A stretch of 64,000 nucleotides of DNA from Escherichia coli (lineage in GTDB: Bacteria > Pseudomonadota > Gammaproteobacteria > Enterobacterales > Enterobacteriaceae). The stretch lies in assembly GCF_013315695.1 (NCBI RefSeq), contig NZ_CP054353.1; one strand, written 5' to 3'. Positions 8,517 to 40,358 of the stretch are shown here, piece after piece. The translations under genes were made by a program, and so were the position numbers. The notes under the pieces were generated by a model that did not search any database, was not told the origin of the DNA, and was given only the letters and a program-made list of their open reading frames with translations. Numbering within the stretch: the stretch's first letter is position 1; every line of letters begins with the position of its first letter.

Positions 8517-11500
8517 ATGAGTAAACTTTTGGATCGCTTTCGCTACTTCAAACAAAAGGGCGAAACCTTTGCCGATGGTCACGGACAGGTGATGCATAGC
8601 AACCGCGACTGGGAGGACAGCTATCGCCAGCGTTGGCAGTTCGACAAAATCGTGCGTTCCACCCACGGTGTTAACTGTACAGGCTCCTGTAGCTGGAAAA
8701 TCTACGTTAAAAATGGTCTGGTGACCTGGGAAATCCAACAGACCGACTACCCGCGCACTCGCCCTGACCTGCCCAATCATGAACCTCGCGGCTGCCCGCG
8801 TGGCGCAAGTTACTCCTGGTATCTCTACAGCGCTAACCGTCTGAAATACCCGCTCATTCGTAAACGACTGATTGAACTGTGGCGCGAAGCCCTCAAGCAA
8901 CACAGCGATCCGGTACTGGCGTGGGCATCGATTATGAACGATCCGCAAAAGTGCCTGAGCTACAAACAAGTGCGTGGGCGCGGCGGGTTTATCCGCTCCA
9001 ACTGGCAGGAGCTAAACCAGCTGATTGCCGCTGCTAACGTCTGGACCATCAAAACTTACGGCCCGGATCGCGTTGCCGGTTTCTCGCCGATCCCGGCGAT
9101 GTCGATGGTTTCTTACGCCGCCGGAACACGTTATCTGTCGCTGTTAGGTGGCACCTGTTTAAGCTTCTACGACTGGTATTGCGACCTGCCGCCCGCCTCG
9201 CCGATGACCTGGGGCGAGCAAACCGACGTACCGGAATCTGCCGACTGGTATAACTCCAGTTACATCATCGCCTGGGGGTCTAACGTACCGCAGACACGTA
9301 CGCCGGACGCCCATTTCTTTACCGAAGTACGCTACAAAGGCACTAAAACCATCGCTATTACCCCTGACTACTCTGAAGTGGCCAAATTGTGCGACCAGTG
9401 GCTGGCACCGAAACAAGGCACTGATAGTGCCCTGGCAATGGCAATGGGCCATGTCATTTTAAAAGAGTTTCATCTCGATAATCCCAGCGATTATTTTATC
9501 AACTACTGCCGCCGCTACAGCGACATGCCGATGCTGGTAATGCTGGAACCTCGCGACGACGGCAGCTACGTACCCGGGCGCATGATCCGCGCGTCTGACC
9601 TGGTAGATGGACTGGGCGAAAGCAACAATCCGCAGTGGAAAACCGTGGCGGTTAATACCGCAGGTGAACTGGTGGTGCCGAACGGTTCGATTGGTTTTCG
9701 CTGGGGAGAAAAAGGCAAATGGAATCTGGAATCCATTGCCGCCGGTACGGAAACCGAATTGTCGTTAACTCTGCTCGGTCAACATGATGCCGTTGCAGGC
9801 GTGGCCTTCCCCTACTTTGGCGGCATTGAAAATCCGCATTTTCGCCGCGTAAAACACAATCCGGTCCTGGTGCGCCAATTGCCCGTTAAAAACCTGACAT
9901 TAGCCGATGGCAACACCTGTCCGGTCGTCAGCGTTTATGATTTGGTACTGGCGAATTATGGCCTCGATCGCGGGCTGGAAGATGAAAACAGCGCGAAAGA
10001 TTACGCTGAAATCAAACCGTACACCCCAGCCTGGGGTGAGCAAATTACCGGCGTGCCGCGCCAGTATATTGAAACCATCGCCCGTGAATTTGCCGATACC
10101 GCCCATAAAACGCATGGGCGTTCGATGATTATTCTCGGTGCTGGCGTCAACCATTGGTATCACATGGACATGAACTACCGCGGGATGATCAATATGCTGA
10201 TCTTCTGCGGTTGTGTCGGGCAAAGCGGTGGCGGCTGGGCACACTATGTCGGTCAGGAAAAACTGCGCCCGCAAACCGGCTGGCTGCCTCTGGCTTTTGC
10301 GCTCGACTGGAACCGACCACCGCGCCAGATGAACAGCACCTCGTTTTTCTACAATCATTCCAGCCAATGGCGCTATGAAAAAGTCTCTGCTCAGGAGTTA
10401 CTTTCACCGCTTGCCGATGCCAGTAAGTACAGCGGTCATCTGATTGATTTCAACGTTCGCGCCGAACGTATGGGCTGGCTACCTTCTGCGCCGCAGTTGG
10501 GGCGTAATCCGCTCGGGATTAAAGCTGAAGCCGACAAGGCCGGATTATCTCCCACAGAATTCACCACCCAGGCGCTGAAATCGGGCGATTTACGTATGGC
10601 CTGCGAACAACCCGATAGCGGCAGCAATCATCCGCGTAATTTGTTTGTCTGGCGTTCTAACCTGCTTGGTTCCTCCGGCAAAGGCCACGAGTATATGCAG
10701 AAGTATCTGCTGGGGACCGAAAGCGGGATTCAGGGCGAGGAACTCGGTGCCAGCGACGGGATCAAACCGGAAGAAGTCGAGTGGCAAACTGCGGCGATTG
10801 AAGGCAAGCTCGACCTGCTGGTGACGCTCGACTTCCGCATGTCCAGTACCTGCCTGTTCTCCGATATCGTTCTGCCCACCGCCACCTGGTACGAAAAAGA
10901 CGATATGAACACCTCGGATATGCATCCGTTTATTCATCCGCTTTCTGCGGCGGTCGATCCGGCGTGGGAATCACGCAGCGACTGGGAAATCTACAAAGGT
11001 ATCGCCAAAGCATTTTCGCAACTGTGCGTGGGTCATCTTGGCAAAGAAACCGACGTGGTATTACAACCACTGCTGCATGACTCTCCGGCAGAACTCTCCC
11101 AGCCGTGTGAAGTGCTCGACTGGCGCAAAGGCGAATGCGATCTAATCCCGGGTAAAACCGCGCCCAATATTGTGGCGGTGGAACGCGACTACCCTGCTAC
11201 CTATGAACGCTTTACCTCGCTCGGGCCATTGATGGACAAACTTGGCAACGGCGGTAAAGGGATTTCGTGGAATACCCAGGATGAAATCGATTTCCTCGGC
11301 AAACTCAACTACACCAAGCGTGAAGGCCCGGCACAGGGGCGTCCGCTGATTGACACCGCCATTGACGCATCAGAAGTGATTCTGGCTCTTGCACCGGAAA
11401 CCAACGGTCATGTTGCAGTCAAAGCGTGGCAGGCGCTGGGCGAGATCACCGGACGCGAACATACCCATCTGGCGCTGCACAAAGAGGACGAGAAGATTCG

Positions 11501-12257
11501 CTTTCGCGATATTCAGGCGCAGCCACGTAAAATTATCTCCAGCCCCACATGGTCCGGTCTGGAAAGCGATCACGTTTCCTATAACGCGGGATACACCAAC
11601 GTTCATGAGTTAATTCCGTGGCGCACGCTGTCGGGACGCCAGCAGCTCTATCAGGATCATCCGTGGATGCGTGCTTTTGGTGAAAGTCTGGTGGCTTATC
11701 GCCCGCCTATCGACACCCGTAGCGTCAGTGAAATGCGCCAGATACCGCCAAACGGCTTCCCGGAGAAAGCCCTTAACTTCCTGACACCGCACCAGAAATG
11801 GGGCATTCACTCAACCTACAGTGAAAACCTGCTAATGCTGACGCTCTCTCGCGGTGGACCGATTGTCTGGATCAGCGAAACCGATGCCCGTGAACTGACC
11901 ATTGTCGATAACGACTGGGTGGAAGTGTTTAACGCCAATGGCGCGCTGACGGCCCGCGCGGTGGTCAGCCAGCGTGTACCGCCGGGCATGACCATGATGT
12001 ATCACGCTCAGGAACGCATTATGAATATTCCAGGTTCGGAAGTAACCGGCATGCGCGGTGGCATTCATAACTCGGTCACCCGCGTTTGTCCGAAACCAAC
12101 GCATATGATTGGCGGTTACGCGCAGCTGGCCTGGGGCTTTAACTACTACGGCACTGTCGGCTCTAACCGCGACGAATTCATCATGATCCGCAAGATGAAG
12201 AACGTTAACTGGCTGGATGATGAAGGTCGCGATCAGGTACAGGAGGCGAAAAAATGA
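8517..12257 (+). CDS. narZ: Respiratory nitrate reductase Z alpha subunit
   Basis: Start MSKLLDRFRYFKQKGETF inside track ORF; FS0 cluster motif HGVNCTGSCSWK; 1246 aa. Confidence 0.92.
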   Translation: MSKLLDRFRYFKQKGETFADGHGQVMHSNRDWEDSYRQRWQFDKIVRSTHGVNCTGSCSWKIYVKNGLVTWEIQQTDYPRTRPDLPNHEPRGCPRGASYSWYLYSANRLKYPLIRKRLIELWREALKQHSDPVLAWASIMNDPQKCLSYKQVRGRGGFIRSNWQELNQLIAAANVWTIKTYGPDRVAGFSPIPAMSMVSYAAGTRYLSLLGGTCLSFYDWYCDLPPASPMTWGEQTDVPESADWYNSSYIIAWGSNVPQTRTPDAHFFTEVRYKGTKTIAITPDYSEVAKLCDQWLAPKQGTDSALAMAMGHVILKEFHLDNPSDYFINYCRRYSDMPMLVMLEPRDDGSYVPGRMIRASDLVDGLGESNNPQWKTVAVNTAGELVVPNGSIGFRWGEKGKWNLESIAAGTETELSLTLLGQHDAVAGVAFPYFGGIENPHFRRVKHNPVLVRQLPVKNLTLADGNTCPVVSVYDLVLANYGLDRGLEDENSAKDYAEIKPYTPAWGEQITGVPRQYIETIAREFADTAHKTHGRSMIILGAGVNHWYHMDMNYRGMINMLIFCGCVGQSGGGWAHYVGQEKLRPQTGWLPLAFALDWNRPPRQMNSTSFFYNHSSQWRYEKVSAQELLSPLADASKYSGHLIDFNVRAERMGWLPSAPQLGRNPLGIKAEADKAGLSPTEFTTQALKSGDLRMACEQPDSGSNHPRNLFVWRSNLLGSSGKGHEYMQKYLLGTESGIQGEELGASDGIKPEEVEWQTAAIEGKLDLLVTLDFRMSSTCLFSDIVLPTATWYEKDDMNTSDMHPFIHPLSAAVDPAWESRSDWEIYKGIAKAFSQLCVGHLGKETDVVLQPLLHDSPAELSQPCEVLDWRKGECDLIPGKTAPNIVAVERDYPATYERFTSLGPLMDKLGNGGKGISWNTQDEIDFLGKLNYTKREGPAQGRPLIDTAIDASEVILALAPETNGHVAVKAWQALGEITGREHTHLALHKEDEKIRFRDIQAQPRKIISSPTWSGLESDHVSYNAGYTNVHELIPWRTLSGRQQLYQDHPWMRAFGESLVAYRPPIDTRSVSEMRQIPPNGFPEKALNFLTPHQKWGIHSTYSENLLMLTLSRGGPIVWISETDARELTIVDNDWVEVFNANGALTARAVVSQRVPPGMTMMYHAQERIMNIPGSEVTGMRGGIHNSVTRVCPKPTHMIGGYAQLAWGFNYYGTVGSNRDEFIMIRKMKNVNWLDDEGRDQVQEAKK

Positions 12258-13798
12258 AAATACGTTCGCAAGTCGGCATGGTGCTTAACCTCGATAAATG
12301 TATCGGCTGCCATACCTGTTCGGTGACCTGTAAAAACGTCTGGACCGGACGCGAAGGCATGGAGTACGCATGGTTTAACAACGTCGAAACCAAACCGGGC
12401 ATTGGTTATCCGAAAAACTGGGAAGATCAGGAAGAGTGGCAAGGCGGCTGGGTGCGTGATGTGAATGGCAAGATCCGCCCGCGTCTGGGCAGCAAGATGG
12501 GCGTAATAACCAAAATCTTCGCCAACCCGGTGGTGCCGCAGATTGATGATTACTACGAACCTTTCACCTTCGACTACGAACATTTGCATAGCGCACCGGA
12601 AGGCAAACATATCCCTACTGCTCGCCCGCGTTCACTGATTGACGGCAAACGGATGGACAAAGTGATCTGGGGGCCAAACTGGGAAGAATTGTTGGGCGGC
12701 GAATTCGAAAAACGCGCCCGTGACCGCAACTTCGAGGCCATGCAAAAGGAGATGTACGGGCAGTTTGAAAACACCTTCATGATGTACCTGCCGCGCTTGT
12801 GCGAACACTGCCTCAATCCCAGTTGCGTGGCGACCTGCCCAAGCGGCGCTATCTACAAACGCGAAGAAGACGGCATTGTGCTGATCGATCAGGATAAATG
12901 CCGTGGCTGGCGTTTGTGCATTAGCGGTTGTCCGTACAAAAAAATCTACTTCAACTGGAAAAGCGGCAAGTCAGAAAAATGCATCTTCTGTTATCCGCGA
13001 ATTGAGTCAGGCCAACCCACCGTGTGCTCAGAAACCTGCGTGGGTCGCATCCGATATCTGGGCGTGCTGCTTTACGACGCTGACCGCATCGAGGAAGCGG
13101 CGAGCACCGAGCGCGAAGTTGACCTCTATGAACGCCAGTGCGAAGTATTCCTCGATCCACACGATCCCTCAGTGATCGAGGAAGCCCTGAAACAAGGTAT
13201 TCCACAAAACGTGATTGACGCTGCCCAGCGTTCGCCAGTCTACAAAATGGCAATGGACTGGAAACTGGCGCTACCGCTGCACCCTGAATACCGCACCCTG
13301 CCGATGGTCTGGTACGTTCCGCCGCTGTCACCGATTCAGTCCTACGCTGATGCGGGAGGTTTGCCGAAAAGCGAAGGCGTGCTGCCCGCCATCGAAAGCC
13401 TGCGTATTCCGGTGCAATATCTCGCCAATATGTTGAGTGCCGGTGATACCGGTCCGGTACTGCGGGCGCTGAAACGGATGATGGCGATGCGCCACTATAT
13501 GCGTTCACAAACCGTGGAAGGCGTTACTGATACTCGTGCCATCGACGAAGTAGGTCTGAGCGTCGCCCAGGTCGAAGAGATGTATCGTTACCTCGCCATT
13601 GCCAACTATGAAGACCGTTTTGTCATTCCAACCAGTCATCGGGAAATGGCGGGCGATGCCTTCGCAGAACGCAACGGCTGCGGTTTTACCTTTGGCGACG
13701 GTTGCCACGGCTCGGACAGCAAATTCAACCTGTTCAACAGTAGCCGTATCGATGCCATCAACATCACCGAAGTGCGCGACAAAGCGGAGGGCGAATAA
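12254..13798 (+). CDS. narY: Respiratory nitrate reductase Z beta subunit (Fe-S)
   Basis: 514 aa, multiple Cys clusters (CIGCHTCSVTCK etc.), overlaps narZ stop by 4 nt. Confidence 0.92.
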   Translation: MKIRSQVGMVLNLDKCIGCHTCSVTCKNVWTGREGMEYAWFNNVETKPGIGYPKNWEDQEEWQGGWVRDVNGKIRPRLGSKMGVITKIFANPVVPQIDDYYEPFTFDYEHLHSAPEGKHIPTARPRSLIDGKRMDKVIWGPNWEELLGGEFEKRARDRNFEAMQKEMYGQFENTFMMYLPRLCEHCLNPSCVATCPSGAIYKREEDGIVLIDQDKCRGWRLCISGCPYKKIYFNWKSGKSEKCIFCYPRIESGQPTVCSETCVGRIRYLGVLLYDADRIEEAASTEREVDLYERQCEVFLDPHDPSVIEEALKQGIPQNVIDAAQRSPVYKMAMDWKLALPLHPEYRTLPMVWYVPPLSPIQSYADAGGLPKSEGVLPAIESLRIPVQYLANMLSAGDTGPVLRALKRMMAMRHYMRSQTVEGVTDTRAIDEVGLSVAQVEEMYRYLAIANYEDRFVIPTSHREMAGDAFAERNGCGFTFGDGCHGSDSKFNLFNSSRIDAINITEVRDKAEGE

Positions 13799-14493
13799 TG
13801 CAGATCCTCAAAGTGATCGGCCTGTTGATGGAGTATCCGGACGAGCTGTTGTGGGAATGTAAGGAGGACGCGCTGGCGTTGATCCGCCGCGACGCACCGA
13901 TGCTTACGGATTTTACCCGCAACCTGCTTAACGCGCCGCTGCTGGATAAACAGGCCGAATGGTGCGAAGTGTTTGACCGTGGACGTACCACATCGCTGCT
14001 GCTGTTCGAACATGTTCATGCCGAGTCCCGCGATCGCGGCCAGGCAATGGTGGACCTGCTGGCGGAGTATGAAAAGGTCGGCCTGCAGTTGGATTGTCGA
14101 GAACTGCCCGATTATCTACCGCTGTATCTGGAGTACTTAAGCGTACTGCCGGACGATCAGGCGAAAGAAGGCTTGCTCAACGTTGCGCCGATCCTCGCCC
14201 TGCTTGGCGGACGCTTAAAACAACGCGAGGCTCCGTGGCATTCGTTGTTTGACGCCCTGCTGCAACTGGCGGGAAGTACACTTTCAAGTGACAGTGTCAC
14301 AAAACAAGTAAACAACGAGGAGCGCGATGACACCCGCCAGGCGCTGGATGCGGTGTGGGAAGAAGAACAGGTGAAGTTTATTGAAGATAACGCCACGGCG
14401 TGTGACAGCTCGCCGCTTAATCAATATCAGCGACGCTTTAGCCAGGATGTCGCGCCGCAGTATGTCGACATCAGTGCGGGAGGTGGGAAATGA
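13798..14493 (+). CDS. narW: Nitrate reductase Z assembly chaperone (delta)
   Basis: 231 aa NarJ-family protein, 1-nt overlap with narY. Confidence 0.9.
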
Positions 14494-15170
14494 TTCAGTA
14501 TCTGAACGTCTTTTTTTATGATATCTACCCGTACTTGTGTGGCACGGTTTTTATCCTTGGAAGCTGGCTGCGCTACGATTACGGGCAGTATACCTGGCGC
14601 GCCGCCTCCAGCCAGATGCTGGATAAACGCGGGATGGTGCTGTGGTCGAACTTGTTCCATATCGGCATTCTGGGGATCTTCTTCGGTCATCTGTTCGGCA
14701 TGTTAACGCCGCACTGGATGTACGCGTGGTTTCTGCCGGTGGCGGTAAAACAGCAGATGGCGATGATCCTCGGCGGAATATGCGGGGTATTGACGCTGAT
14801 TGGCGGTGCGGGGCTACTGGTGCGTCGTTTAACAAATCCGCGTATCAGGGCGACGTCTTCTGGTGCGGATATCCTGATCCTCGCCATTTTGTTAATTCAG
14901 TGCATTCTTGGGTTAACCACCATTCCTTTTTCAGCACAACATCCGGACGGCAGTGAAATGATGAAGCTGGTGGGCTGGGCGCAAAGCATTGTCACTTTCC
15001 AGGGCGGTGCATCTACGCATCTTGATGGTGTCGCCTTTATATTCCGCGTTCATCTGGTGCTTGGAATGACCATCTTTCTGCTCTTCCCGTTCACCCGACT
15101 GGTGCATGTCTGGAGCGCGCCGTTTGAGTACTTTACTCGTCGGTATCAGATTGTGCGTTCGCGGCGTTAA
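14490..15170 (+). CDS. narV: Respiratory nitrate reductase Z gamma subunit (cytochrome b)
   Basis: 226 aa membrane heme protein, ATGA overlap with narW. Confidence 0.9.
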
Positions 15171-15249
15171 TTCTCACGCGGGCCGGATAGCCCTTCGCTC
15201 TCCGGCCACTTGCAGGCTATGATAGTTCTCCAGCCACAGGAGAACGTTA

Positions 15250-16143
15250 ATGAAACCGCAGGTGTACCACGTCGATGCTTTTACCTCTCAACCGTTTCGC
15301 GGCAATTCTGCCGGTGTTGTTTTCCCCGCCGATAATCTCAGCGAAGCGCAAATGCAGCTTATCGCCCGCGAATTAGGTCATTCCGAAACTGCTTTTCTGC
15401 TGCACAGCGACGACAGCGATGTGCGCATCCGCTACTTTACGCCAACGGTTGAAGTGCCGATTTGTGGTCACGCGACAGTAGCTGCGCACTATGTACGTGC
15501 AAAGGTGTTAGATTTAGGAAATTGCACGGTCTGGCAAACGTCACTGGCAGGAAAACACCGCGTGACTATCGAAAAGCATAACGATGATTATCGTATTTCG
15601 CTGGAACAAGGTACGCCGGGCTTTGAGCCACCGCTGGAAGGTGAAACACGAGCGGCGATTATCAACGCGCTTCATCTCACTGAAGACGATATTTTGCCTG
15701 GCTTGCCAATTCAGGTGGCAACCACAGGACACTCAAAAGTGATGATCCCACTGAAACCAGAAGTGGATATCGACGCCCTTTCGCCTGATCTTGCTGCGCT
15801 GACCGCTATCAGCAAACAGATTGGCTGCAATGGTTTCTTCCCGTTCCAGATCCGCCCAGGCAAAAACGAAACCGACGGTCGTATGTTCTCGCCTGCCATT
15901 GGTATTGTGGAAGATCCGGTGACCGGCAATGCCAATGGCCCGATGGGTGCATGGTTAGTACATCACAACGTATTGCCACACGATGGCAACGTGTTGCGTG
16001 TTAAAGGCCATCAGGGGCGCGCATTAGGGCGTGACGGCGTGATTGAAGTGACGGTGACAATTCGTGATAACCAACCGGAGAAAGTCACCATTTCTGGCAC
16101 GGCGGTGATTTTGTTTCATGCCGAATGGGCAATTGAACTCTGA
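15250..16143 (+). CDS. yddE: PhzF-family isomerase-like protein
   Basis: 297 aa, synteny downstream of narV. Confidence 0.85.
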   Translation: MKPQVYHVDAFTSQPFRGNSAGVVFPADNLSEAQMQLIARELGHSETAFLLHSDDSDVRIRYFTPTVEVPICGHATVAAHYVRAKVLDLGNCTVWQTSLAGKHRVTIEKHNDDYRISLEQGTPGFEPPLEGETRAAIINALHLTEDDILPGLPIQVATTGHSKVMIPLKPEVDIDALSPDLAALTAISKQIGCNGFFPFQIRPGKNETDGRMFSPAIGIVEDPVTGNANGPMGAWLVHHNVLPHDGNVLRVKGHQGRALGRDGVIEVTVTIRDNQPEKVTISGTAVILFHAEWAIEL

Positions 16144-16150
16144 AACCGTT

Positions 16151-16228
16151 GCCTGATGCGCTTCGCTTATCAGGCCTACAACCGGACTAATGTATGCCGG
16201 ATTAGGCATTTACGCCACATCCGGCAAC
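16151..16228. repeat. BIME (two inverted REP units) between yddE and nhoA
   Basis: gcctgatgcgcttcgcttatcaggcctac and tgccggattaggcatttacgccacatccggca read in sequence. Confidence 0.65.
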
Positions 16229-16238
16229 CTGACATAAA

Positions 16239-17084
16239 TTATTTTCCCGCCTCCGGGTGCGTATCAAACGCCGCCATCACCAGCGCTAACTCATCCACAG
16301 TAAAGCCATGTTTCACATCATCCACGCCCAGACCAAACTGTTCCTGCATCACGGCATATAACGACGCCACATCTGGTAGATTTCGCTGCTCAACTGCGTG
16401 CCCATTTTCATAATGGGTAAAATGAAAATTGGTCAGCGTTAGCTTGCCACCGTCCGGCAAATGGCGACACATCAGCAAATGATGGCGAAAATGAGACTGC
16501 GGCCAGTGCGCCGACCAGAAATTGCCCATCACATAATCGCTTTGTTGCTGCTCGCAGAGATCAAAACGGTACATCGACTGCCAGTGCTGATGATGATTAA
16601 ACTGCAACACCCAATCATCACCCTCCTGTAACAACCGATACTCTCCGTGTGGCGTGAACTGCACGAGATCGGGAACTAAACGAATCGGCGCGGTTAGCGT
16701 CTGCCCACCGAAGCCGACATCAGCAATCCATTTTTCCCCTTCCAGTTCCACCAACAGCAAACGATGGGTGCGCGGCGGTAATGCTGGCGGATTTGATAAC
16801 ACTACGCGCCCTAACAAGCTGCGAACGTTAAACCCCAGCTCGCATAACACCCGCTCAAACACGCCATTCTGCTCAAAACAGTAACCGCCACGATGGGCTG
16901 TCACCAGTTTTTCTTCCAGCGATTGATCATCAAGCTGTATTTCCCTCGGCAGCAAAACGTCGAGGTTTTCAAACGGAATAGTGCAATTGTGTTTCAGGTG
17001 CAATGCACGCAGCGTATCAATATTGACCGCAGCAGCTCCCGACCAGTTAATACGGGCAAAATAATGATTCAGAATGGGCGTCAT
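16239..17084 (-). CDS. nhoA: Arylamine N-acetyltransferase (N-hydroxyarylamine O-acetyltransferase)
   Basis: 281 aa, NAT family, synteny. Confidence 0.88.
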   Translation of the reverse strand: MTPILNHYFARINWSGAAAVNIDTLRALHLKHNCTIPFENLDVLLPREIQLDDQSLEEKLVTAHRGGYCFEQNGVFERVLCELGFNVRSLLGRVVLSNPPALPPRTHRLLLVELEGEKWIADVGFGGQTLTAPIRLVPDLVQFTPHGEYRLLQEGDDWVLQFNHHQHWQSMYRFDLCEQQQSDYVMGNFWSAHWPQSHFRHHLLMCRHLPDGGKLTLTNFHFTHYENGHAVEQRNLPDVASLYAVMQEQFGLGVDDVKHGFTVDELALVMAAFDTHPEAGK

Positions 17085-17258
17085 CAGGCGTTTCCCTTAG
17101 TGGTTTTCTCAACTTATAACCTGGAATAGACGCCGCACCGGCTATTTTGTGCGATCGCGGACATGCATCACGTTCGCAAATCGCCAATCCCGTTAATTTC
17201 GTTACTTATTGCGTTACGAGCTACGCTTTTAAAACACCCTTCATAGCGAGGCGATATC

Positions 17259-17828
17259 GTGAGCCAATTCATTCCCGTCGAATTACACCATGCCAGCCGT
17301 CTGTTAAATCATGGCCCAACTGTCTTGATCACCAGTTTCGATGAGCAATCCCAGCGGCGTAACATTATGGCTGCAGCCTGGTCAATGCCGGTGGAGTTTG
17401 AACCTCCACGCGTCGCGATTGTGGTAGATAAGTCGACATGGACCAGGGAGTTGATTGAGCGTAACGGTAAATTTGGCATCGTTATCCCAGGCGTTGCAGC
17501 GACTAACTGGACGTGGGCAGTGGGAAGTGTATCTGGGCGTGAAGAGGATAAATTTAATTGCTATGGCATTCCGGTGGTGGAAGGTCCGGTGCTTGGTTTG
17601 CCACTTGTTGAAGAGAAATGTCTGGCGTGGATGGAGTGCCGATTGCTACCAGCGACTTCCGCGCAAGAGAAATACGACACGCTGTTTGGCGAAGTGGTAT
17701 CAGCAGCGGCAGACGCACGGGTATTTGTCGAAGGCCGCTGGCAGTTTGATGATGATAAGCTCAATACGTTGCATCATTTAGGCGCTGGCACGTTTGTTAC
17801 CAGCGGCAAGCGTGTTACGGCAGGTTAA
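17259..17828 (+). CDS. yddH: Flavin reductase-like domain protein
   Basis: 189 aa, synteny. Confidence 0.8.
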   Translation: MSQFIPVELHHASRLLNHGPTVLITSFDEQSQRRNIMAAAWSMPVEFEPPRVAIVVDKSTWTRELIERNGKFGIVIPGVAATNWTWAVGSVSGREEDKFNCYGIPVVEGPVLGLPLVEEKCLAWMECRLLPATSAQEKYDTLFGEVVSAAADARVFVEGRWQFDDDKLNTLHHLGAGTFVTSGKRVTAG

Positions 17829-17831
17829 GCA

Positions 17832-18059
17832 TTACATGCTGTAACCAGGTTTCTTTATCAGCGTCTCCATTTGGGGCGCAATTTCGGCGTCCCAGATAGC
17901 TTGCCATGATTCTGGTTGAATCTGCTGTAGAGCAATGCTTATCGAACTGTCTTTACTGTTCAGATGGCGAATAATAACGTCGGTAATATCTGCAGCAAGT
18001 GCTGCTTTTTGTTGTTCGTCCAGTTCACGTGGAAAACATTTAATGTCTATGTGCGGCAT
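17832..18059 (-). CDS. pptA: 4-oxalocrotonate tautomerase-family protein
   Basis: Starts [18 protein letters not shown] (internal Met of track ORF 17832..18098); N-terminal Pro after Met typical of tautomerases. Confidence 0.85.
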
Positions 18060-18363
18060 GATTGTGCTCCTTTTGAAAGATGTCAGTAAAATTAACACAC
18101 GTTGTGAATGTTATGTGTCCGGTGATGCTTTTTTACGGCAATAATGCCTACTTGAATTTGTACAGGTTTGTACTACACCCTTTTAAATAAAGCGCCAACA
18201 AAAACGTCAACTTGCAGAATATATTCTTCGCCAACATGCCATTAAGAAAACATCAAGTTCCCAGCTTGCCAATTTATTAACGCCCATTATAGTTATTCTT
18301 GCCCTCACAAAAATTTTCATCCGTAATTACCCCCAATAAAAGTCCATTCTGGAGACGCTTAAG

Positions 18364-18978
18364 ATGCAGCTTAATCATATTGTTAAAAGTCTGCTAATAA
18401 CGGGATTATTCACCACCAGTTCTTTGCCACTCCTCGCGGCGGAAGCCCCTAAAGACGCCACCGCAGCCACGCAACAAGCAAACAATTTACTCTACAACCA
18501 GTTGCCGTTTTCTGATAACACTGACTTTACTGATGCCCATAAAGGTTTTGTTGCCCCTATCCCTCAAGACGTGATTAAGGGCGAAAAAGGAAATGTTATC
18601 TGGGATCCACAACAATACGCTTTTATTAAAGAAGGTGATAAAGCCCCTGATACGGTGAATCCAAGTTTATGGCGTCAGGCGCAACTGATAAATATCAGCG
18701 GGTTATTCGAAGTAACTGAAGGTGTCTATCAGATTCGCAATCTCGATCTATCAAATATGACCATCATTGAAGGCAAAGAGGGTATTACCATCGTTGATCC
18801 CCTTGTTTCAGCAGAAACAGCCAAAGTGGGTATGGATCTCTATTACAAAAATCGCGACAAAAAACCGGTAGTAGCGGTTATCTACACACACAGTCATGTC
18901 GATCACTACGGTGGTGTTCGCGGCGTAATTGATGAAGCTGACGTTAAATCAGGCAAAGTTAAAATCTACGCGCCAGCC
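18364..18978 (+). pseudogene. Alkyl/aryl-sulfatase (YjcS/BDS1-like, metallo-beta-lactamase fold) N-terminal fragment, interrupted by IS1
   Basis: Signal peptide plus MBL motif THSHVDHYGG; reading frame runs directly into IS1 left end. Confidence 0.75.
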
Positions 18979-19033
18979 GGTGATGCTGCCAACTTACTGA
19001 TTTAGTGTATGATGGTGTTTTTGAGGTGCTCCA

Positions 19034-19309
19034 GTGGCTTCTGTTTCTATCAGCTGTCCCTCCTGTTCAGCTACTGACGGGGTGGTGCGTAACGGCAAAA
19101 GCACCGCCGGACATCAGCGCTATCTCTGCTCTCACTGCCGTAAAACATGGCAACTGCAGTTCACTTACACCGCTTCTCAACCCGGTACGCACCAGAAAAT
19201 CATTGATATGGCCATGAATGGCGTTGGATGCCGGGCAACAGCCCGCATTATGGGCGTTGGCCTCAACACGATTTTACGTCACTTAAAAAACTCAGGCCGC
19301 AGTCGGTAA
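19034..19309 (+). CDS. insA: IS1 InsA
   Basis: 91-aa [43 protein letters not shown]. Confidence 0.95.
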
Positions 19310-19731
19310 CCTCGCGCATACAGCCGGGCAGTGACGTCATCGTCTGCGCGGAAATGGACGAACAGTGGGGCTATGTCGGGGCTAAATCGCGCCAGCGCTG
19401 GCTGTTTTACGCGTATGACAGGCTCCGGAAGACGGTTGTTGCGCACGTATTCGGTGAACGCACTATGGCGACGCTGGGGCGTCTTATGAGCCTGCTGTCA
19501 CCCTTTGACGTGGTGATATGGATGACGGATGGCTGGCCGCTGTATGAATCCCGCCTGAAGGGAAAGCTGCACGTAATCAGCAAGCGATATACGCAGCGAA
19601 TTGAGCGGCATAACCTGAATCTGAGGCAGCACCTGGCACGGCTGGGACGGAAGTCGCTGTCGTTCTCAAAATCGGTGGAGCTGCATGACAAAGTCATCGG
19701 GCATTATCTGAACATAAAACACTATCAATAA
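19228..19731 (+). CDS. insB: IS1 InsB (transposase made as InsAB by -1 frameshift)
   Basis: 167-aa ORF overlapping insA; A-run slippery site upstream. Confidence 0.95.
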
Positions 19732-19746
19732 GTTGGAGTCATTACC

Positions 19747-21865: not shown

Positions 21866-22483
21866 TTAAATGATTCCATTCCTCTTTAGTATCCCTTTTA
21901 GCTTTGGTATCTGACATACAGCATCAGCAATCGCATTGATGTTCGGGGCATTATCCTGAAACCATTCGTGTCCCGGTCCCCATGTGCGCATGGTGCAGAG
22001 ATAACAGTCCACCAGCGTTAGTTGCTCTCCAAACACATACGGTTCAGCGGTCAATTGTGAATTCAGCCAGATATAAAGCGATTTACGATATTCAATAACA
22101 TTATTCTTTAACTGTTCGGGTGCGTCAGGAGCCCAACGCTTAGGGTAATCGGCGAAAGTGAACGTTGGATAGACATTAGCAACCAGCCAGACCAATAACC
22201 GTTGAAACTGCTAGCGTTCGGTGCGCCCAACCGGTGGCGCAAGGTCCGGGCGACGATCGAGAACCATCAATGCAATCGCCGCTGTCTCCGTCATAATCTC
22301 GTCATTTTCCAGCGCCAGTGTCGGAATCTGACACAACGGGTTCAGGGTTTTCAATAAATCGCGTGAAGTTCCCTCGTGGTCAAAACCACTGACATCAACG
22401 AACTGATAAGGAATATCAGCCAGTGTTAGCATCATCTCACTGATTGTAGTGCCCCATCCGGGTACGCCATACACCTTAATCAT
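21866..22483 (-). pseudogene. yncG: Glutathione S-transferase-like protein with in-frame amber (TAG) codon at 22211..22213
   Basis: Track ORFs 22211..22483 and 21866..22195 are in the same frame separated by a single TAG; together they cover GST N- and C-domains. Confidence 0.8.
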
Positions 22484-27802: not shown

Positions 27803-27817
27803 GGTAATGACTCCAAC

Positions 27818-28321
27818 TTATTGATAGTGTTTTATGTTCAGATAATGCCCGATGACTTTGTCATGCAGCTCCACCGATTTTGAGAACGACAGCGACTTCC
27901 GTCCCAGCCGTGCCAGGTGCTGCCTCAGATTCAGGTTATGCCGCTCAATTCGCTGCGTATATCGCTTGCTGATTACGTGCAGCTTTCCCTTCAGGCGGGA
28001 TTCATACAGCGGCCAGCCATCCGTCATCCATATCACCACGTCAAAGGGTGACAGCAGGCTCATAAGACGCCCCAGCGTCGCCATAGTGCGTTCACCGAAT
28101 ACGTGCGCAACAACCGTCTTCCGGAGCCTGTCATACGCGTAAAACAGCCAGCGCTGGCGCGATTTAGCCCCGACATAGCCCCACTGTTCGTCCATTTCCG
28201 CGCAGACGATGACGTCACTGCCCGGCTGTATGCGCGAGGTTACCGACTGCGGCCTGAGTTTTTTAAGTGACGTAAAATCGTGTTGAGGCCAACGCCCATA
28301 ATGCGGGCTGTTGCCCGGCAT
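27818..28321 (-). CDS. insB: IS1 InsB
   Basis: Identical translation to other copies. Confidence 0.95.
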
Positions 28322-28515
28322 CCAACGCCATTCATGGCCATATCAATGATTTTCTGGTGCGTACCGGGTTGAGAAGCGGTGTAAGTGAACTGCAGTTGCC
28401 ATGTTTTACGGCAGTGAGAGCAGAGATAGCGCTGATGTCCGGCGGTGCTTTTGCCGTTACGCACCACCCCGTCAGTAGCTGAACAGGAGGGACAGCTGAT
28501 AGAAACAGAAGCCAC
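28240..28515 (-). CDS. insA: IS1 InsA
   Basis: Identical translation to other copies. Confidence 0.95.
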
Positions 28516-28570
28516 TGGAGCACCTCAAAAACACCATCATACACTAAATCAGTAAGTTGGCAGCATCACC

Positions 28571-31181: not shown

Positions 31182-31627
31182 ATCAGTCGCTCACCCTTGC
31201 TTTTTTGATTGCCGCCGGAATTGGTCTGGTAGTCCAGAACACGCTGATGGTGCGCATCACCCAGACCTCCTCTACCATTCTCATCGCCATGTTGCTGAAC
31301 TCACTGGTGGGGATTGTGCTCTTTGTTTCTATTTTATGGTTTAAACAAGGTATGGCGGGGTTTGGCGAACTGGTGTCCAGCGTGCGCTGGTGGACACTTA
31401 TACCTGGCTTGCTGGGATCGTTTTTTGTCTTCGCCAGTATCAGCGGATATCAGAATGTGGGAGCGGCGACAACTATTGCAGTACTGGTCGCCAGCCAGCT
31501 GATTGGCGGTCTGGTGCTGGATATCTTTCGCAGTCATGGCGTACCACTACGGGCGTTGTTCGGCCCAATTTGTGGCGCAATTTTACTTGTGGTTGGCGCC
31601 TGGCTGGTGGCCAGGCGCACATTTTAA
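31178..31627 (+). CDS. ydcZ: Inner-membrane protein (DUF606)
   Basis: 149 aa hydrophobic, ATGA overlap with mnaT. Confidence 0.85.
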   Translation: MNQSLTLAFLIAAGIGLVVQNTLMVRITQTSSTILIAMLLNSLVGIVLFVSILWFKQGMAGFGELVSSVRWWTLIPGLLGSFFVFASISGYQNVGAATTIAVLVASQLIGGLVLDIFRSHGVPLRALFGPICGAILLVVGAWLVARRTF

Positions 31628-31861
31628 TCAGAGGATGGTGCCACCTTTGGTTAACTGTTCGTGGCGCGCTTCCATATCTTCTTTATGTTTGCGACCGTGA
31701 TGGGCGATCGCTGTGCGCAGACGCTGCTGCTGGGTATAGCGTTCTTCCCGACTTAACTCCGCGTCATCGCTCAGGGCGATTAATAATTCGTTCATATGGG
31801 CAATGACGCTCTCTTCAATCGCGGCATCCACGCGCGCGATGACTTCATCCAGATGCGACAT
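31628..31861 (-). CDS. ydcY: Small uncharacterised protein
   Basis: 77 aa, synteny. Confidence 0.8.
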   Translation of the reverse strand: MSHLDEVIARVDAAIEESVIAHMNELLIALSDDAELSREERYTQQQRLRTAIAHHGRKHKEDMEARHEQLTKGGTIL

Positions 31862-31946
31862 ACTTTCTCCTTAGCCACTTGTGAAATTTATCGATTCATC
31901 CAAATGATATAAGTCTGCGTGGTGCCGTCAAGCCAGTGAGTAAGAT

Positions 31947-32024
31947 TTAAAACAGTGAAAACAACAGCGCCACCGGGAAACTCATCGGCCATGTTGCCCC
32001 CACCAGAAAGGCGCTTAAGAAACG
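31947..32024 (-). pseudogene. ortT: 3' remnant (last 25 codons) of small toxin gene ortT (ydcX), 5' part removed at IS1 junction
   Basis: Minus-strand frame from the IS1 junction reads RFLSAFLVGATWPMSFPVALLFSLF-stop, matching OrtT C-terminus. Confidence 0.65.
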
Positions 32025-32079
32025 GGTGATGCTGCCAACTTACTGATTTAGTGTATGATGGTGTTTTTGAGGTGCTCCA

Positions 32080-32355
32080 GTGGCTTCTGTTTCTATCAGC
32101 TGTCCCTCCTGTTCAGCTACTGACGGGGTGGTGCGTAACGGCAAAAGCACCGCCGGACATCAGCGCTATCTCTGCTCTCACTGCCGTAAAACATGGCAAC
32201 TGCAGTTCACTTACACCGCTTCTCAACCCGGTACGCACCAGAAAATCATTGATATGGCCATGAATGGCGTTGGATGCCGGGCAACAGCCCGCATTATGGG
32301 CGTTGGCCTCAACACGATTTTACGTCACTTAAAAAACTCAGGCCGCAGTCGGTAA
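32080..32355 (+). CDS. insA: IS1 InsA
   Basis: Identical translation to other copies. Confidence 0.95.
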
Positions 32356-32777
32356 CCTCGCGCATACAGCCGGGCAGTGACGTCATCGTCTGCGCGGAAA
32401 TGGACGAACAGTGGGGCTATGTCGGGGCTAAATCGCGCCAGCGCTGGCTGTTTTACGCGTATGACAGGCTCCGGAAGACGGTTGTTGCGCACGTATTCGG
32501 TGAACGCACTATGGCGACGCTGGGGCGTCTTATGAGCCTGCTGTCACCCTTTGACGTGGTGATATGGATGACGGATGGCTGGCCGCTGTATGAATCCCGC
32601 CTGAAGGGAAAGCTGCACGTAATCAGCAAGCGATATACGCAGCGAATTGAGCGGCATAACCTGAATCTGAGGCAGCACCTGGCACGGCTGGGACGGAAGT
32701 CGCTGTCGTTCTCAAAATCGGTGGAGCTGCATGACAAAGTCATCGGGCATTATCTGAACATAAAACACTATCAATAA
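32274..32777 (+). CDS. insB: IS1 InsB
   Basis: Identical translation to other copies. Confidence 0.95.
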
Positions 32778-32846
32778 GTTGGAGTCATTACCGGATTTTC
32801 TTAACCCGTACTATACACATAGGGGCAATGATAAAAGGTGGCAAAA

Positions 32847-32942
32847 ATGAATGTTTCCAGTAGAACTGTAGTACTGATAAATGTCTTTGCTGCTGTTGGT
32901 TTGTTTACTCTTATCTCTATGAGATTTGGCTGGTTTATTTGA
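32847..32942 (+). CDS. yncL: 31-aa small membrane protein MNVSSRTVVLINVFAAVGLFTLISMRFGWFI
   Basis: Short ORF with SD (aaaaggtgg) and hydrophobic helix; below track size cut-off; matches recalled K-12 small protein YncL. Confidence 0.6.
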   Translation: MNVSSRTVVLINVFAAVGLFTLISMRFGWFI

Positions 32943-32964
32943 TGTAGTGATTTTGCACGCAGCA

Positions 32965-32999
32965 CGTACTGTCAGAGAAATCAGTGCTCTGACAGTACG
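32965..32999. terminator. Perfect 13-bp inverted repeat (cgtactgtcagag ... ctctgacagtacg) between yncL and patD
   Basis: Read directly; between convergent genes. Confidence 0.5.
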
Positions 33000-33038
33000 C
33001 AAGATCATCTCATACTCTTACGATCTGCAATATTATCC

Positions 33039-34463
33039 TTAATGTTTAACCATGACGTGGCGGACGACGGTGTAATCCTCCAGCCCATAAAGTGACATAT
33101 CCTTGCCGTAACCAGAAAGTTTCTGCCCACCGTGCGGCATTTCACTTACCAGCATGAAATGGGTATTGACCCAGGTACAACCATATTGCAGCCGCGCGCT
33201 GACGCGATGCGCCCTGCCCACATCTTTCGTCCATACCGAGGATGCAAGTCCGTACTGACTGTCATTCGCCCAGTTCACCACCTGTTCTTCGTTGTCGAAG
33301 AGCGTAACACTCACTACCGGACCAAATACCTCTTTTTGCACGATGGCATCATCCTGTAATGCGCCAGCCAGTAGCGTCGGCGCATAGTAATAGCCATTAC
33401 CCTTGCGCTTTTCACCACCGGTGATCACTTTGATGTGCCCTGTCGCTTTCGCCTCTTCTACCGCCTTGCTGACGCGTTCGAGATGCGCCAGCGAGCTTAA
33501 AGGTCCAAGCTCCGTAGACTCGTCAGCCGGTGCACCCGATTTTAACGTTGCCACCGCAGCACCGAGTTTTTCCACCAGCGTATCGTAAATGCCTTTTTGC
33601 GCGTAGATCCGACAAGCCGCTGTACAATCCTGTCCGGCATTGTAATAGCCAAAAGTACGTACACCTTCGACCACTGCTTCAATATCCGCATCATCAAAAA
33701 CAATCACTGGCGCTTTGCCACCAAGTTCCATATGAGTACGCTTAATCGACGGCGCGGTATGGCTGATGATGTGCTCGCCGGTGGCGATAGAGCCCGTCAG
33801 CGACACCATCCGCACTTTAGGATGTCCGGTCAGCGGATCGCCCACCGTTTTGCCTCTGCCAAACAGTACGTTAATCACGCCTGCCGGGAAGATATCTTTC
33901 GCCAGCTCTGCCAACTTCAACGCGGTCAGCGGGGTAATTTCTGATGGTTTAAGCACTACGCAGTTCCCTGCCGCCAGCGCCGGAGCCAGTTTCCACGCGG
34001 CCATCATCAGCGGATAATTCCACGGTGCGATAGAAGCCACGACCCCCAACGGATCGCGACGGATCATCGAAGTATGACCTTCAAGATATTCACCTGCCGC
34101 CAGACCATTCAGACAGCGCGCCGCACCCGCGAAAAAGCGAAAGACATCGACAATCGCCGGGATTTCATCATTGAACGCACTATGCAGTGGTTTGCCACAA
34201 TTACGGGACTCCAGTTCGGCAAAAACCTGACCATTTTCTTCGATAACATCAGCCAGTTTCAGCAGACATTCCGCACGCACTTTCGGCGTGGTTTGCCCCC
34301 ATTCGGCAAATGCTGCATCTGCCGCGCGCACAGCAGCATCGACCTGCTCTGCGGATGCCTCGGCAATCTCCAGTAAAACGTCCCCCGTTGCCGGATTATA
34401 GACAGGCTGTTTTTCCCCTTCGCCGCTAACCAGTTCTCCGTTAATCAGTAACTTATGTTGCAT
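33039..34463 (-). CDS. patD: Gamma-aminobutyraldehyde dehydrogenase
   Basis: 474 aa aldehyde dehydrogenase starting [27 protein letters not shown]. Confidence 0.9.
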
Positions 34464-40038: not shown

Positions 40039-40147
40039 TATCGAATCGTTATTATGTGCAGGTGATTCGGCAGTCTATATCAGTTGTTAAAAATGACAAC
40101 TTTTCATTAACTGTTATCAAACCATCACCAGCGATAACTCCTTGCCT

Positions 40148-40183
<36 letters not shown>

Positions 40184-40358
40184 TTACCTCCGTGTGTAAT
40201 GTGCTCGAAAATAGCACTAAATCGCCGCAACGGCAGAATGCTATGCAAAATCAGGAAGGAAGATTCCAGAATTTCTTTGCGCTAATTTGCAAAACTGAAT
40301 AATAACCTCAAGAAACGATCGGCATCATAGCGTCAAAAGGTTAGAAAAAGGTGGCGGG

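Follow-up and report, generated by a model that had tools for sequence, protein, structure and literature searches.

That IS1 promotes deletions of the DNA adjacent to it has been established for decades; an example was reportedly given by Reif and Saedler in 1975. A simple IS1 insertion is expected to be bordered by a 9-bp target site duplication (TSD), which reflects the insertion event and not the element itself. An intact IS that has no TSD and borders a clean deletion is the signature either of an adjacent deletion or of recombination between nearby direct copies. In the long-term evolution experiment, a multistep pattern of insertion, adjacent deletion and extension was described for IS elements (PMC11708052). 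The formation of fusion promoters by IS1 is another known property, for which PMC9330008 cites Prentki et al. 1986.

In Escherichia coli K-12, ortT (ydcX) is an orphan toxin gene of the GhoT/OrtT family. OrtT is a protein of 57 amino acids with predicted transmembrane helices at residues 6-26 and 34-54, and three promoters have been predicted for the gene in the upstream spacer between ortT and yncL (Islam et al., PMC4344625). The intact protein matches Pfam PF10753 (Toxin_GhoT_OrtT) over residues 4-57 (E = 9e-28); the family assignment was made with Pfam, and NCBIfam has no HMM for OrtT.

The stretch of E. coli DNA analysed here (the window; 64,000 nucleotides) carries the same syntenic ydcY-ortT-yncL-patD arrangement as K-12, interrupted by the third of three IS1 copies. 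What stands at the locus is a lineage-specific ortT pseudogene, very probably created by IS1, and probably through an insertion and a subsequent adjacent deletion anchored at one end of the element. The features of the locus and the other IS1 copies in the window are collected in Table 1.

Table 1. Positions in the window of the three IS1 copies and of the features at the ortT-yncL locus
Feature	Position	Strand	Remarks
IS1 copy 1	18979..19746	+	flanks at 18978 and 19747; no TSD
IS1 copy 2	27803..28570	-	simple insertion; 9-bp TSD ggcatttac
ortT (ydcX) 3' remnant	31947..32024	-	stop codon 31947..31949; codons 33-57 at 31950..32024
IS1 copy 3 (IS1A-like, intact)	32025..32792	+	768 bp
IRL of IS1 copy 3	32025..32047		
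IRR of IS1 copy 3	32770..32792		
insA of IS1 copy 3	32080..32355		91 codons
A6C frameshift motif of IS1 copy 3	32331..32337		within TTAAAAAAC at 32329..32337
Breakpoints			ortT side TAAGAAACG; yncL side GGATTTTCT
Surviving ortT-yncL spacer	32793..32846	+	54 bp
Candidate σS-type -10 element, C-TATACA	32811..32817	+	TATACA at 32812..32817; sequence resemblance
yncL Shine-Dalgarno sequence, AAGGTGG	32835..32841	+	5 nt upstream of the start codon
yncL	32847..32942	+	intact 31-codon gene; small stress-response membrane protein
Perfect 13-bp inverted repeat	32965..32977 and 32987..32999		CGTACTGTCAGAG, 9-nt loop, CTCTGACAGTACG; between convergent yncL and patD

IS1 copy 3 and the truncated ortT gene

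IS1 copy 3 has the properties of its family: it is ~768 bp long, it is bounded by imperfect terminal inverted repeats of ~23 bp that start with GGTGATG and GGTAATG, and its insA and insB' frames are linked by a -1 programmed frameshift at A6C. The insB' frame overlaps insA and extends to 32777. The termini are canonical, GGTGATGCTGCC at the left and GGAGTCATTACC at the right, and the two inverted repeats match at 18 of 23 positions. The same element in the E. coli genomes MSB1_4I and AF3 is labelled by PGAP as 'IS1-like element IS1A family transposase, programmed frameshift'. A 9-bp TSD was sought at the flanks of copy 3 and none was found, the left flank being taagaaacg and the right flank ggattttct. 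An earlier note on this DNA, which had described the interval 31947-32942 as a third IS1 copy without target duplication, was thus accurate in its coordinates and was borne out on the flanks and on the numbering of the copy, two further copies identical to it being present in the window.

To the left of the element, the minus-strand frame ending at 32024 translates as RFLSAFLVGATWPMSFPVALLFSLF followed by a stop codon. These residues are identical (25/25) to residues 33-57 of OrtT WP_000061178.1 (tblastn E = 2.8e-13), in agreement with the suggestion in the earlier note that this frame is the C-terminus of OrtT (YdcX) with the N-terminal codons missing. No OrtT-like sequence besides this remnant was found in the window by tblastn. 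The remnant has no start codon, ribosome-binding site or promoter, and given the helix positions reported by Islam et al., it retains only the second predicted transmembrane helix.

A translatable fusion of IS1 and OrtT was considered and ruled out. The frame is closed by an in-frame TAA at 32040..32042 within IS1, 5 codons upstream of the remnant, so that no fusion protein can be made from it; moreover, it contains no start codon that would leave at least 20 codons. The OrtT coding capacity has been lost and ortT is inactivated. A GhoT/OrtT toxin is a protein of ~57 amino acids with two transmembrane helices and a match to the family profile, which the remnant in the window is not; it is a gene fragment and not a member of the family in any functional sense. 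Compared with K-12 ortT, the allele in the window is a pseudogene that lacks codons 1-32, the ribosome-binding site and the promoters, and keeps one of the two helices (helix 2). Downstream of ortT, ydcY still has its own promoter-like site (TTGACG-16-TATCAT, 31931..31904).

Extent of the deletion and its origin

The two flanks were joined without IS1 and the resulting locus was searched for in 5,426 complete E. coli genomes. E. coli MS 21-1, which has no IS1 at this locus and an intact ortT gene of 57 codons (WP_000061178.1), was taken as the reference. The gene order of the locus is curA / mnaT-ydcZ / ydcY-ortT / yncL / patD, and the flanks in the window are collinear with MS 21-1 apart from 1 mismatch in 4,232 bp. 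An alignment of the ydcY-ydcX-yncL-patD region, which the earlier note had proposed as a check against K-12, was made with MS 21-1 and gave a deleted interval of exactly 236 bp (MS 21-1 locus L001, 2125..2360). It is made up of the first 96 bp of ortT, which hold codons 1-32, and of 140 of the 194 bp between ortT and yncL; 54 bp of this spacer are retained. The missing host DNA is contiguous, its limit falls exactly at the IS terminus and the IS is intact, as in an adjacent deletion. Together with the lack of any other ortT in the window and the PGAP pseudogene call in the relatives, this alignment supports the proposal of the earlier note that the 5' half and promoter of ortT were deleted and the toxin inactivated.

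It was also considered whether the 236 bp had been moved beside another IS1 by inversion or translocation. This was rejected, as the segment is absent from the window: a search of the whole window gave only chance matches of up to 15 nt. No swapped target duplications, which would be a sign of inter-IS recombination or inversion, were found among the IS1 copies. The gene order is native on both sides of copy 3, and it was therefore concluded that the DNA was simply deleted, with no inversion or translocation involved.

We infer the order of events and the mechanism of the deletion as follows. IS1 would have entered ortT or the DNA just upstream of it in the common ancestor of MSB1_4I, AF3 and the strain from which the window comes. 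A deletion anchored at one end of the element would then have removed adjacent chromosomal DNA together with one copy of the target duplication; such adjacent deletions arise when the element transposes replicatively, within the same molecule, to a nearby site. What has been lost in all is the 236 bp, with codons 1-32 including the start codon and helix 1, the ribosome-binding site and 140 bp of the divergent spacer with the predicted ortT promoters. A simple-insertion precursor with a 9-bp TSD was found at neither breakpoint in any of the 5,426 complete genomes, so for copy 3 the two-step order was not directly observed. With regard to the described IS1 adjacent deletions, copy 3 agrees in that an intact IS1 is kept, the deletion starts exactly at the IS1 terminus and the TSD is lost. 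No mechanistic difference from them is visible, and either end of copy 3 may mark the site of the original insertion.

A neighbouring IS1 of the same lineage is informative in this respect. In comparison with MS 21-1, copy 1 replaces 387 bp inside an alkyl/aryl-sulfatase gene, and its left end abuts the deletion, likewise in MSB1_4I. AF3 has the identical right junction, but a further ~15.1 kb is missing leftward (window ~3839..18978), which takes in LRR genes, narU, narZ, narH, narW, narI, yddE, nhoA, yddH, pptA, part of a porin gene and the upstream part of the sulfatase gene. End-anchored deletions give one junction that is fixed and, at the opposite IS end, endpoints that vary, and the copy 1 alleles are a nested series of this kind. 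The series resembles the IS-adjacent deletions of the long-term evolution experiment that were 'small at first, then extended' (PMC11708052).

The end product alone is identical if two direct IS1 copies were inserted 236 bp apart and RecA-dependent recombination then deleted the intervening DNA and one IS1. This sequence of events would yield exactly the observed structure, with a single intact IS1 beside a clean deletion and without a TSD, and the several identical IS1 copies within 14 kb, which imply frequent IS1 transposition in the lineage, fit it as well. However, it requires two insertions within 236 bp, and neither a single insertion nor a two-copy intermediate was found in any of the 5,426 complete genomes. 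It would also require yet more nearby insertions to account for the copy 1 series, with its one common junction and two deletion endpoints. Recombination between direct copies is hence considered unlikely, and adjacent deletion is the probable mechanism, because IS1 promotes such deletions, no second-copy intermediates occur in the collection and copy 1 shows the process at work.

In a one-step event, a double-strand break or deletion junction would instead have captured IS1, with no target cleavage of the transposase type ('IS-Del without TSD'). The absence of a TSD and of any observed precursor would suit such a capture; the long-established ability of IS1 to promote adjacent deletions speaks against it. 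One-step capture has been proposed for other IS families, but in the long-term evolution experiment 14 of 14 traceable IS-associated deletions were multistep adjacent deletions (PMC11708052), and for copy 3 it appears very improbable.

The remaining IS1 in the window, copy 2, lies where the convergent genes mcbR and pqqU are separated by a short spacer. MSB1_4I has this copy as well, AF3 and MS 21-1 lack it, and this distribution makes it younger than copies 1 and 3; as a simple insertion with a 9-bp TSD it indicates that IS1 has been recently active in the lineage. Among themselves, the three IS1 copies of the window show 100% identity. The IS1 linked to ortT in MSB1_4I and AF3 (L002, L004) has two differences from the other copies, at IS1 positions 100 and 262; each is a third-codon position of insA, and the protein accession is the same for both versions. 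The identity of the three copies is due either to gene conversion in the strain of the window or to repeat collapse by the assembler. Such a collapse inside the IS might be taken to mean that the assembly is at fault, with IS1 misplaced and ortT really intact. Yet both unique junctions are exact in two independently finished genomes, MSB1_4I and AF3, so that the junctions are no artefact of assembly, and the deleted 236 bp are absent throughout the window; the probability of this explanation is practically negligible.

The yncL promoter region and the adjoining palindrome

The CTATAC motif is typical of σS-dependent promoters. When the alleles are set side by side, the intact one reads TTGCGG-17 nt-TATACA, with a C directly before the -10 hexamer, and transcription from this candidate promoter would start ~23 nt upstream of the yncL ATG. 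The IS1 junction cuts the candidate -35 element, in that TTGC/GG becomes TACC/GG, and the -35 hexamer of a σS-type yncL promoter is thus probably interrupted. A strong RpoS-holoenzyme SELEX peak has been reported in the yncL/ydcX spacer (PMC5493296), the Salmonella orthologue of yncL, transcript STnc1110, is σS-dependent (PMC5437024), and yncL is induced by heat shock and in stationary phase (PMC12542507); a σS-type promoter is consistent with all of these observations. A scan for σ70 consensus promoters upstream of yncL gave no call in either the IS1 or the intact allele.

The product of yncL, MNVSSRTVVLINVFAAVGLFTLISMRFGWFI, has the same sequence as WP_001303494.1; with the NCBIfam equivalog NF000537 (cutoff 35) it reaches 72.5 bits, over residues 1-30 of 30. 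The identification of the 31-codon ORF with a good ribosome-binding site as YncL, made in the earlier note, is thereby confirmed. Its statement that yncL is retained is right for the ORF and the ribosome-binding site, which are intact, and less so for the upstream region, of which 54 bp are left and the probable -35 element is cut.

As in other cases of promoter remodelling at IS junctions, the IS1 end occupies the -35 region of the downstream gene, and IS1 copy 3 and yncL have the same orientation. In contrast to those cases, the -35 element contributed by the IS1 end is poorer than the native one (TACCGG versus TTGCGG). A hybrid promoter starting from TTGGAG in the IRR was examined and rejected, as no -10-like hexamer is present 16-18 bp downstream; the candidate -10 sequence TACTAT lies 24 nt away, which is too far. 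Judged from these sequences, the poorer -35 element and the distant TTGGAG would lead one to expect weakening or deregulation of yncL and not activation. Expression of yncL is probably kept, but in a weakened form or under altered control.

The perfect 13-bp palindrome to the right of yncL, to which the earlier note had also drawn attention, is real. On the plus strand it folds with a minimum free energy of -31.3 kcal/mol (z = -3.2). No T-tract is present at 32965..32999 on either strand, and the palindrome was not called in a scan for consensus intrinsic terminators. An Rfam scan of 31600..33200 (E <= 1) gave no match at all, so that yncL, the palindrome and the ortT remnant fall in no curated RNA family. 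The flanking sequence, including the palindrome, is identical in the IS-free MS 21-1, and the palindrome is native and unrelated to the IS1 event. The pair patD-yncL has been listed among the convergent overlapping transcription units ('excludon') (PMC12288877).

Distribution and meaning of the allele

Each junction was searched separately as a 50-mer in the 5,426 complete E. coli genomes. Both were found in full in the same two, MSB1_4I, from a rectal swab in Australia, and AF3, from a blood culture in the UK, and no genome had just one of them. Among the 5,415 genomes that hold the locus, ortT and the spacer are contiguous in 5,413; the two exceptions are the carriers of the IS1 allele, and therefore the deletion was never seen without IS1 in complete genomes. 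At the structural level, large disruptions of ortT are otherwise very rare in these 5,415 complete genomes. Over 39,989 bp, the window aligns collinearly with MSB1_4I without gaps and with 7 mismatches, and its DNA thus comes from a third strain that is closely related to MSB1_4I and AF3. The allele is not novel: ortT is annotated by PGAP/RefSeq in these two genomes as a pseudogene ('incomplete; missing N-terminus').

Two other pseudogenes of the window were mapped from the RefSeq annotation of collinear relatives. One is a fragment of a HicB-family antitoxin gene that is missing the N-terminus, near ydcR/yncJ (window ~40117..40194, from L004 28717..28794), and the other is yncG with an internal stop (window ~21866..22483, from L004 11243..11860). 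Both also occur in the IS-free MS 21-1 and hence predate the IS1 expansion.

The event at ortT is an ordinary IS1-associated pseudogenisation and suggests no new biology. That it was selected and not neutral is quite improbable; this reading would have the membrane-depolarising OrtT removed and the σS-type promoter of yncL rewired, with the -35 element and the upstream region replaced by the right end of IS1, YncL being a small protein that also depolarises the membrane. If it were true, entry into growth arrest or the tolerance of antifolate or heat stress might be changed in the lineage. Should the expression of yncL be altered, the locus could serve for the study of the promoter of this small protein. 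Taken together with copy 1, it is a small natural example of IS1-anchored deletions that are later extended. The allele could act as a clonal marker linking the strain of the window with MSB1_4I (Australia) and AF3 (UK), and it leaves this strain without functional OrtT, a toxin that is structurally intact in >99.9% of complete E. coli genomes.
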